From positions 1 through 31,722 of the forward strand of contig DNJI01000069.1 of the NCBI GenBank assembly GCA_003489145.1: DNA of 31,722 nt, written 5' to 3'. The notes beneath the pieces were generated by a model, which did not search any database, was not told where the DNA came from, and was given only the letters and a program-made list of their open reading frames with translations. Both the position numbers and the translations under genes were made by a program. Of this stretch, positions 25,195 to 25,295 are shown in pieces. The stretch comes from Gammaproteobacteria bacterium. Lineage in GTDB: Bacteria; Pseudomonadota; Gammaproteobacteria; PS1; Pseudothioglobaceae. Positions within the stretch are counted from its first letter, which is position 1, and each line of letters opens with the position of its first letter.

Positions 25195-25295
25195 TTTTTT
25201 CTTTGAACAAGGAGAGTTCTCAAAAATTTGATTGAGCATAGATACTGCTATGTGATTGAAAAATTTTTAGGATTCGACGCCGTTCAAAGGAAAAA
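25195..25295. other. Symmetric 101-bp tRNA-trailer element, copy B
   Basis: TTTTTTCTTTGAAC (25195-25208) / GTTCAAAGGAAAAA (25282-25295), 13/14 inverted repeat; core GAGCATAG-ATACTG-CTATGTGATTGAA at 25234-25260. Confidence 0.75.

Follow-up and report, generated by a model that had tools for sequence, protein, structure and literature searches.

The window analysed here, a contig of 31,722 nt from a gammaproteobacterial genome (DNJI01000069.1), contains an imperfect palindrome next to a gene for tRNA-Gln (copy B below) and a related one next to a tRNA gene with anticodon CAT (copy A). Copy B is, near certainly, one copy of a family of structured repeats of approximately 120 nt that is restricted to part of the Thioglobaceae (the SUP05 clade). 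The explanation that fits best combines this identity with a role as a polar boundary hairpin, and we put its probability at roughly 0.5; the functional part, in which the element serves transcription units as a polar hairpin module at their 3' boundary, is a tentative proposal to which we give somewhat less than even odds. The window was placed in the SUP05 clade because its prs-encoded protein is 97% identical to that of a Candidatus (Ca.) Ruthturnera metagenome-assembled genome (MAG) and 86-90% identical to those of SUP05, Thiodubiliella and Vesicomyosocius.

The original prediction was drawn around two arms (25195-25208 and 25282-25295) that match as an inverted repeat at 13 of 14 positions and enclose 73 bp, with the hairpin CATAG-ATACTG-CTATG (25237-25252) lying between flanks of 28 and 29 nt and a nested inverted repeat, AAAAATTT/AAATTTTT, at 25222 and 25261. 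Each of these features was recovered, as were the edges shared with copy A: CAAGTRTTTT (at 21927 and 25189) and AAAGGAAAAAG (at 22024 and 25286), the latter occurring four times in the 977-kb assembly of this genome, three of the four inside copies of the element. The outer arms can be extended to 17 nt at 88% (25192-25208 / 25282-25298), and the one mismatch within the 14-nt arms sets T against G, a combination that can wobble-pair on the + strand. The full unit is ~121 nt, so that the 101 nt first proposed was slightly too small. A covariance model, R1 (121 positions, 33 pairs), was built from three copies that align over ~121 nt: copies A and B, and a third full copy that a motif scan of the assembly located on contig C112, directly after an xerD-like gene and with no tRNA nearby. 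Copies A and B match R1 at 121 and 131.5 bits, and the homology that had been claimed for them is upheld. The parts of copy B are as follows.

25184..25304, + strand: copy B, full repeat unit (R1, 131.5 bits, E 2.9e-27)
25192..25208, + strand: outer helix (stem 1), 5' arm; preceded by the most conserved block, AAGTATTTTT
25222..25229, + strand: inner helix, 5' arm (A-run), partner of 25261-25268
25230..25259, + strand: conserved core, consisting of GATTGAG, the apical hairpin (25237-25252) and TGATTGA
25261..25268, + strand: inner helix, 3' arm (T-run), partner of 25222-25229
25282..25298, + strand: outer helix, 3' arm; followed by the conserved AAAAAGACGAAG tail
25310..25384, - strand: tRNA-Gln(TTG), the gene to which copy B is anchored; its 3' end (25310) lies 14 nt from the arm first reported and 5 nt from the end of the unit

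A search of this genome with R1 found five full and three partial copies; the assembly (977 kb in 127 contigs) is 77% complete, so the number of full copies is at least five. Related genomes carry between 1 and 27 copies each, and relatives overall more than 150. The element is present in 16 of 41 genomes of the set of relatives and in 21 of 41 Thioglobaceae genomes sampled, representing 11 of the 19 genera sampled from the family, and R1 found no match in 16 other families of the class. Exact matches to the 30-nt core occur in 22 contigs of the GTDB species collection, all of them SUP05-clade records (titles include Ca. Thioglobus, Ca. Ruthturnera, SUP05, Piscirickettsiaceae, unclassified Gammaproteobacteria MAGs and the thiotrophic symbiont of Bathymodiolus heckerae); among the viral contigs of IMG/VR the core has no match. 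A cmscan of positions 20500-26500 against Rfam 15 (E up to 1) returned the two tRNAs only and left the element unmatched, and a search of the literature for the repeat found no description. The kind of sequence – a lineage-specific intergenic palindromic repeat – is well known; the family itself is uncatalogued and did not pass as a member of any of the named classes considered below. We have not seen described together its combination of features: anchoring to gene 3' ends at single-nucleotide scale, fixed polarity, selection on the opposite strand, and deep divergence with covariation.

The structure of the family was analysed in an alignment of 98 copies from 14 genomes, each oriented as R1 reads it. 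Every copy forms a long imperfect hairpin with an outer helix, two inner helices and an apical stem of 5-6 bp, and covariation is seen in each of these. In the better-folding orientation the consensus opens with a (T)GCAAGTATTTTT block, the variable 5' arm of stem 1 and CAAGGC; the variable stems 2 and 3 (stem 3 being usually an A-run) follow, and then GA(T)TGAG; the apex consists of CATAG, a variable 6-nt loop and CTATG, and is followed by TGA(Y)TGA; the 3' part comprises the 3' arms of stems 3 and 2, (T)AACGCAG, the 3' arm of stem 1 and a GGAAAAAGACGAAGTA tail. The helices are variable in sequence; the loops and the apical hairpin are conserved, the conserved internal loops between helices being AAGTATTTTT, CAAGGC, GATTGAG / TGATTGA, AACGCAG and AAAAAGACG. 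The core heptamers GATTGAG and TGATTGA are direct repeats that together make an internal loop. Standard pairs fill 94.2% of cells, compared to 77.7% in shuffles and at most 53% when partners are slid, and changes on both sides are found at 28 of the 33 pairs. Doubly changed cells number 574 against 135 in shuffles (none of 500 shuffles is as high), and the covariation originally noted between two copies holds across the 98 copies. The alignment was fitted to R1, which flatters the pairing figures; the margin is large, and folds of single copies agree.

Pairing is, in addition, specific to one strand. Irrespective of the alignment, the strand antisense to the adjacent gene is the one that folds better in 96 of the 98 copies, the mean folding energy being -33.4 kcal/mol on that strand and -23.6 kcal/mol on the other, so that the hairpin is ~10 kcal/mol more stable there. 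For copy B the better-folding orientation is the + strand of the window, antisense to tRNA-Gln: it folds at -35.3 kcal/mol (z -5.3, dinucleotide shuffles), compared to -19.9 kcal/mol (z -2.1) for the - strand. At the consensus pairs, read on the antisense strand, G·U outnumbers A·C by 282 to 44, and of the 33 pair positions 24 have more G·U than A·C (0.0014 by sign test). Copies anchored to tRNA, rnpB and protein-coding genes alike show the excess, and it holds (29 vs 1) in copies shielded on the left by a canonical terminator. On the same strand G exceeds C in 98 of 98 copies. The gene-sense strand folds too (z about -3.5), more weakly; it is pyrimidine-rich, with C not above the genome mean and G alone depleted. 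Mutational bias was considered as a source of the G·U excess and rejected on theoretical grounds: if the non-template or leading strand were deaminated, the skew would run the other way, so the bias looks selected. Strand-specific pairing of this sort points to a hairpin of single-stranded RNA or DNA. Selection on symmetry, the original reading of the complementary arms, is in part upheld by the covariation; what it got wrong is the object, which is base pairing on one strand and not a symmetric duplex binding site.

With open reading frames (ORFs) of at least 110 aa or tRNA calls counted as genes, 74 of the 98 copies have their right end at -6 to +12 nt relative to the 3' end of an opposite-strand gene. 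Five further copies abut the 3' end of rnpB (RNase P RNA), with gaps by Rfam of 0, 1 and 5 nt at three loci that contain the whole gene, one of them a later locus of the genome G051; five abut a DsrC-like gene that is too short for the ORF filter. With these and several outer members of tandem arrays the anchored total is ~88 of 98. The stable-RNA anchors are tRNA-Gln, two kinds of tRNA-CAT, tRNA-Ser (GCT and TGA), tRNA-Glu, tRNA-Leu, tRNA-Phe, tRNA-Cys and rnpB; protein anchors, named by eye from C-terminal sequences and not by family searches, amount to at least ~22 genes (XerD, DksA, GreA, DsrC, DsrE-like, GuaA, LysS, YidC, FabG, SecF, KdsD, HinT, Grx4, Fdx and others). Genes for tRNA or RNase P RNA account for 32-34 of the 98 copies and for 10 of ~41 distinct anchors, where ~3% would be expected (P about 1e-6). 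The description of the element as a tRNA trailer therefore captured a real excess at tRNA genes and rnpB, and fell short in that two thirds of copies abut the stop codons of protein genes.

Orientation is fixed by the anchor. On the left side the neighbouring gene varies: 37 copies have one that runs in the direction of the anchor, and 34 have a convergent one. In co-directional contexts the two possible orientations of the element stand at 37 vs 5 (P 4e-7). In the closed genome G051, convergent gene pairs carry head-to-head copies, each anchored to its own gene, and in G017 some copies are oriented against their neighbours on the same chromosome arm and are anchored to genes on the other strand: orientation thus follows the anchor gene, and the alternative that it is set by the replichore was rejected. 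Where the gene on the left is co-oriented with the element, 15 nt or more separate its end from the element in all but three cases, a spacing that fits a stable hairpin forming in the mRNA of the left gene. Approximately 11 copies lie within 24 nt of the start codon of the next co-directional gene.

Two further loci may be noted. At L123 (G017 C1:1141449-1142967), probably the spacer of an rRNA operon, two divergent copies (45-49 bits) near tRNA-Ile(GAT) and tRNA-Ala(TGC) have the opposite polarity, their better-folding strand being co-directional with both tRNAs. At L230 (G051 C1:281504-283212) three tandem copies abut a sequence whose end resembles that of a stable RNA (reverse complement of TGGAGTCGGCGCGAAAC...), for which neither ARAGORN nor Rfam at its gathering threshold gave an identification.

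The family is old and mostly inherited vertically, given that identity among copies within a genome is only 0.56-0.64, that 50 of the 98 copies have as their closest relative an orthologous copy from a different genome, and that orthologous copies at dksA differ by compensatory changes in stem 1. Its history also includes occasional loss, local tandem duplication and replacement of copies. At the convergent dksA site, four genomes from two genera carry the element and three genomes of the same genus lack it; in the empty site of G004 the two stop codons overlap, and in one further genome the right ~35 nt of the element are left as the remnant of a deletion. After guaA, the genome G009 has an element 0 nt from the TAA and 26 nt from the next ATG, while the corresponding spacer of G002 (L185, C57) holds in its place a 17-nt repetitive extragenic palindromic (REP) sequence, GGAAAGCAAGGCTTTCC, a palindrome that also flanks a gene of G002 resembling REP-associated tyrosine transposases (RAYT-like); the 120-nt element and REPs thus use the same niche. 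In the relative L039 a canonical intrinsic terminator after tRNA-Gln begins at the very base at which the element starts in the window: both share the CCA and TTTTC, and then follows either the terminator or the element. In L041, L043 and L045 the spacers between tRNA-Gln and prs are 27-81 nt long and contain no element. Where the tRNA-Gln site is filled, different genomes of the genus carry different subfamilies, and beside tRNA-CAT and tRNA-Phe a full copy of another type sits between the tRNA and an older, truncated copy. Tandem arrays are head-to-tail with a period of ~121 nt, and identities of 88-100% between neighbouring members point to local duplication. Many copies lie at contig ends.

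Among known systems the closest likeness is to the REPs, bacterial interspersed mosaic elements (BIMEs) and REPINs (REP doublets forming hairpins) of Enterobacteria and Pseudomonas. These too are extragenic palindromic hairpins after genes, single or in tandem, lineage-specific and long-lived, and RAYT-like genes occur in most genomes that bear the element. The element differs in being one hairpin of 120 nt with asymmetric conserved loops, where a REPIN is a doublet of 20-40-nt REPs; in the ~60% identity of its copies within a genome, where REPINs form near-identical populations; and in its strict anchoring to gene 3' ends with fixed polarity. By genome, the Y1_Tnp/RAYT-like genes and the element are both present in 18, both absent in 16, and alone in four (Y1) and three (element, G051 among them), a comparison confounded by kinship; in our reading the co-occurrence stems from common descent within a repeat-tolerant subclade. 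The RAYT-like genes score 26-78 bits on NF047646, under its cut-off of 80. Of ten examined, most have a GC-rich palindrome of their own (17-25 nt) on both flanks, that of L198 has one on the 3' side only and none is evident beside L202; R1 found no copy of the element beside any of the ten. G051, which is 99% complete, has at least 25 copies, at 15 loci, and no Y1_Tnp. A REPIN/RAYT link was therefore rejected, since RAYT-like genes are flanked by their own REPs and G051 has many copies with no Y1_Tnp.

The RAYT-like genes of the Thioglobaceae encode Y1 transposases of ~208-239 aa (L194:1455-2129 in G009, L195, L196, L197, L198, L199, L200, L201 and L203): those with palindromes on both flanks show the classic REP-RAYT arrangement, and one syntenic type, with the motif YYHVFNRG...LPNHFHLLLKQ, scores 26-38 bits on NF047646.

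The enterobacterial repetitive intergenic consensus (ERIC), also termed intergenic repeat unit (IRU), and the Correia repeats (CREE/NEMIS) resemble miniature inverted-repeat transposable elements (MITEs); like the element they are imperfect palindromes over their whole length, of similar size (100-160 nt), and lie in transcribed intergenic regions, and both families are known for orientation-dependent effects on RNA and for RNase cleavage. In contrast to these, the element has no near-identical dispersed copies, is restricted to Thioglobaceae and lies 0-12 nt from gene ends; its termini are conserved, yet there is no clean terminal inverted repeat. Presence or absence at orthologous sites, as in MITEs, was found at dksA, guaA and tRNA-Gln, which are filled or empty among relatives; no target-site duplication (TA or other) is visible at the filled and empty sites of the two loci compared for it, dksA and guaA. 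With integron attC sites the element shares a size of ~60-140 nt, a position directly 3' of an ORF, fixed orientation, the maintenance of structure over sequence and a best-folding strand that is antisense to the ORF. It differs in being dispersed beside housekeeping and RNA genes without a cassette array, and no RYYYAAC / GTTRRRY boxes are present at the consensus termini (AAGTATTTTT and AAAAAGACGAAGTA). An identity as attC was rejected on the lack of R boxes and of an array (intI itself was not searched for).

Intrinsic terminators occupy the same genomic place, and L039, where one stands after tRNA-Gln at the site homologous to the element, illustrates this; some copies of the element, by contrast, lie inside apparent operons. 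Neither copy A nor copy B contains, in either orientation, a terminator-like site (a GC-rich stem with a direct U-tract), the apical stem being 5-6 AT-rich pairs and the T-run lying ~10 nt off and itself paired; a canonical intrinsic terminator was rejected for want of these features. Three further candidates were rejected. A TnpB guide (omega) RNA is contradicted by the near-absence of TnpB: in a search that did not extend to IscB, PF07282 was found in just one of 41 Thioglobaceae genomes, where the element is represented by one weak copy. As for a XerCD dif-like site, the apex of the element shares with the dif of this genome only the inner GCATA / TATGT, without the TAAAT arm. Resemblances of the core to integration host factor (IHF) sites and to boxA were seen by eye only and are not conserved across subfamilies. 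The dif-like site just mentioned lies on contig C45 (~3483-3510, TTCGCATAA TTTATA TTATGTTAAAT) and probably marks the replication terminus of this genome; the adjacency of one copy of the element to xerD we regard as coincidence.

How might a polar boundary hairpin work? With no room for a terminator between gene and element, the transcript of the gene must continue into the element, which then forms a trailer that is rich in pyrimidines and folds weakly. Structural selection bears on the opposite strand, where the stabler hairpin forms; any transcript, or any single-stranded DNA (ssDNA), running toward the 3' end of the gene would meet that hairpin. The element may then act as a one-way barrier or processing site that insulates gene ends, above all those of stable-RNA genes, from converging transcription, with the conserved loops as a possible docking site for some factor. 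Such a boundary would account for the strand bias and polarity, for the surplus of copies at stable-RNA genes, for the head-to-head pairs and for the spacing on the left. Its more specific version, in which the functional form of a new polar boundary signal is the antisense one – either an RNA that stops or processes converging transcripts or an attC-like folded ssDNA for a recombinase – we consider unlikely as it stands; if it is true, then a signal on the antisense strand would mark, genome-wide in SUP05 bacteria, where genes for tRNAs, for RNase P RNA and for selected proteins end.

Several observations weigh against the boundary hairpin. The metatranscriptome contigs available are undirected and say nothing on strand; the 37 co-directional contexts offer no known gene whose transcription would cross the element in the required direction, and no conserved promoter precedes it. 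At least eight copies (at DsrC and DsrE-like loci) have a canonical bidirectional terminator between the convergent gene and the element: little antisense RNA should reach them, yet the G·U excess persists. The hairpin has no U-tract and so is not a canonical intrinsic terminator in either direction, and the sites of close relatives that do without the element indicate that it is dispensable at individual loci. Template switching within palindromes could, moreover, generate some compensatory changes without selection; it would preserve neither the asymmetric loops nor the G·U bias.

A selfish origin is possible, if doubtful: the element would be a non-autonomous mobile sequence (MITE-, REPIN- or BIME-like) without host function, its hairpin recognised as ssDNA by some enzyme, and its position after genes would reflect target preference plus survival where insertions are harmless. 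Much of the turnover agrees with this, namely the differences in presence or absence at orthologous sites within one genus and the deletion remnant, the different subfamilies at tRNA-Gln, the older copies truncated by newer ones, the tandem arrays, the frequent position at contig ends, the REP that occupies the guaA niche in G002 and the genome-level co-occurrence with Y1_Tnp/RAYT-like genes. Yet no genome contains near-identical dispersed copies (only tandem neighbours are alike), RAYT-like genes are flanked by short GC-rich REPs of their own and not by the element, copy-rich G051 lacks Y1_Tnp, comparison of filled with empty sites shows no target-site duplication, and orientation tracks the anchor gene, not the replichore. 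That pairing and loop sequence are kept in diverged orthologous copies argues, furthermore, for purifying selection at each locus. Function on the gene-sense strand, which we judge improbable, would make of the element a 3'-flank RNA: a processing or stabilising hairpin, or a pyrimidine-rich, G-poor loading site for Rho that ends transcription of the anchor. Beginning 0-12 nt after the gene it must be in the transcript of that gene; the intrinsic terminator of L039 stands at exactly the homologous point; and at DsrC and DsrE-like loci the element lies between stop codon and terminator, that is, within the 3' untranslated region. The gene-sense strand has C above G in all 98 copies and folds at z -3.5, but C is not enriched over the genome mean (only G is depleted), and the wobble asymmetry shows that pairing is selected on the other strand. 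In the copies ≤24 nt before the next start codon (~11 of them), and at guaA with its 26 nt, the element also cannot be an efficient terminator.

The RNA data, undirected Logan contigs of metatranscriptomes, speak to the gene-sense possibility only weakly. Contigs from RNA libraries cover prs upstream to 25139 and tRNA-Gln down to 25304, and one ends exactly at the border of the element, 25304, as termination or processing there would predict; the site is polymorphic in the community, and the contig end probably reflects strain polymorphism at the spacer. In the marine community run X1, contigs join 24932, 25010 or 25110 to 25291/25304 and others have a different sequence next to tRNA-Gln, so the spacer between tRNA-Gln and prs is polymorphic among co-occurring strains. 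That the element is an independent family of small-RNA genes expressed from the better-folding strand is very improbable: covarying helices, conserved loops, multiple copies and a strand-specific fold would all suit it, but neither a conserved promoter in front of the unit nor a terminator behind it is present, adjoining coding sequences leave it a margin of just 0-25 nt, and head-to-tail arrays with a ~121-nt period occur. Least credible is the narrow form of the original prediction, an element specific to tRNA trailers that serves tRNA 3' processing or hosts a promoter for prs. The excess beside tRNA genes and rnpB is in its favour, as is the fact that both copies in the window follow tRNAs; about two thirds of copies nevertheless follow protein-coding genes, and the spacer between tRNA-Gln and prs lacks the element in L039, L041, L043 and L045. 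The suggested prs promoter found no support, no conserved promoter-like motif (sigma-70 included) being present in or beside the element.

The remaining features of the window that bear on the two copies are these.

21855..21876, + strand: left-terminus remnant from what was probably another tandem copy, now decayed; repeats 21922-21943 in direct orientation at 91% identity
21922..22041, + strand: copy A (R1, 121 bits, E 8.4e-25), with a 14/14 outer inverted repeat
22051..22127, - strand: tRNA with anticodon CAT, anchor of copy A, downstream of rpoD; 3' end 9 nt from the unit
24047..25009, - strand: prs, the next gene downstream of copy B on the tRNA-Gln strand
25401..26252, - strand: ORF upstream of tRNA-Gln, putative ispE, named from synteny alone

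Read along the minus strand, the order at copy A is rpoD, the CAT tRNA, copy A and an ORF of 252 aa; at copy B it is putative ispE, tRNA-Gln, copy B and prs, where the ispE label follows the gene order of Gammaproteobacteria. Because both tRNAs are on the minus strand, both elements lie downstream (3') of them. Copy A belongs to subfamily 2, in which the inner complementary arms are replaced by purine-rich, non-pairing sequence. The 22-nt duplicate at 21855-21876, 67 nt upstream of copy A, is probably what remains of a decayed tandem copy, and AAGTATTTTT remnants of a similar kind are found left of many other copies. The partial matches to R1 in this genome are at C40:1365-1445, C54:7769-7846 and C67:695-754. 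Those on C40 and C54 comprise positions ~22-102 only, without the outer helix; that on C67 reaches both ends of the model in just 60 nt and is an internally shortened copy. The three may have arisen by decay of full copies, or may represent a related but shorter element.

The SUP05-clade Thioglobaceae are among the most abundant sulfur oxidisers of oxygen-minimum zones, hydrothermal plumes and mussel symbioses, and their genomes are small and packed. In such genomes an element of 120 nt has long been kept at the exact 3' ends of up to ~25 genes per genome, and no catalogued RNA family or repeat class accounts for it. In practical terms it breaks MAG assemblies, many copies being found at contig ends, and offers a marker specific to the clade. 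If selfish, it would be an unusually old and precisely targeted repeat; if functional, it would point to a hitherto unrecognised means by which streamlined genomes delimit their transcription units or protect their stable-RNA genes.

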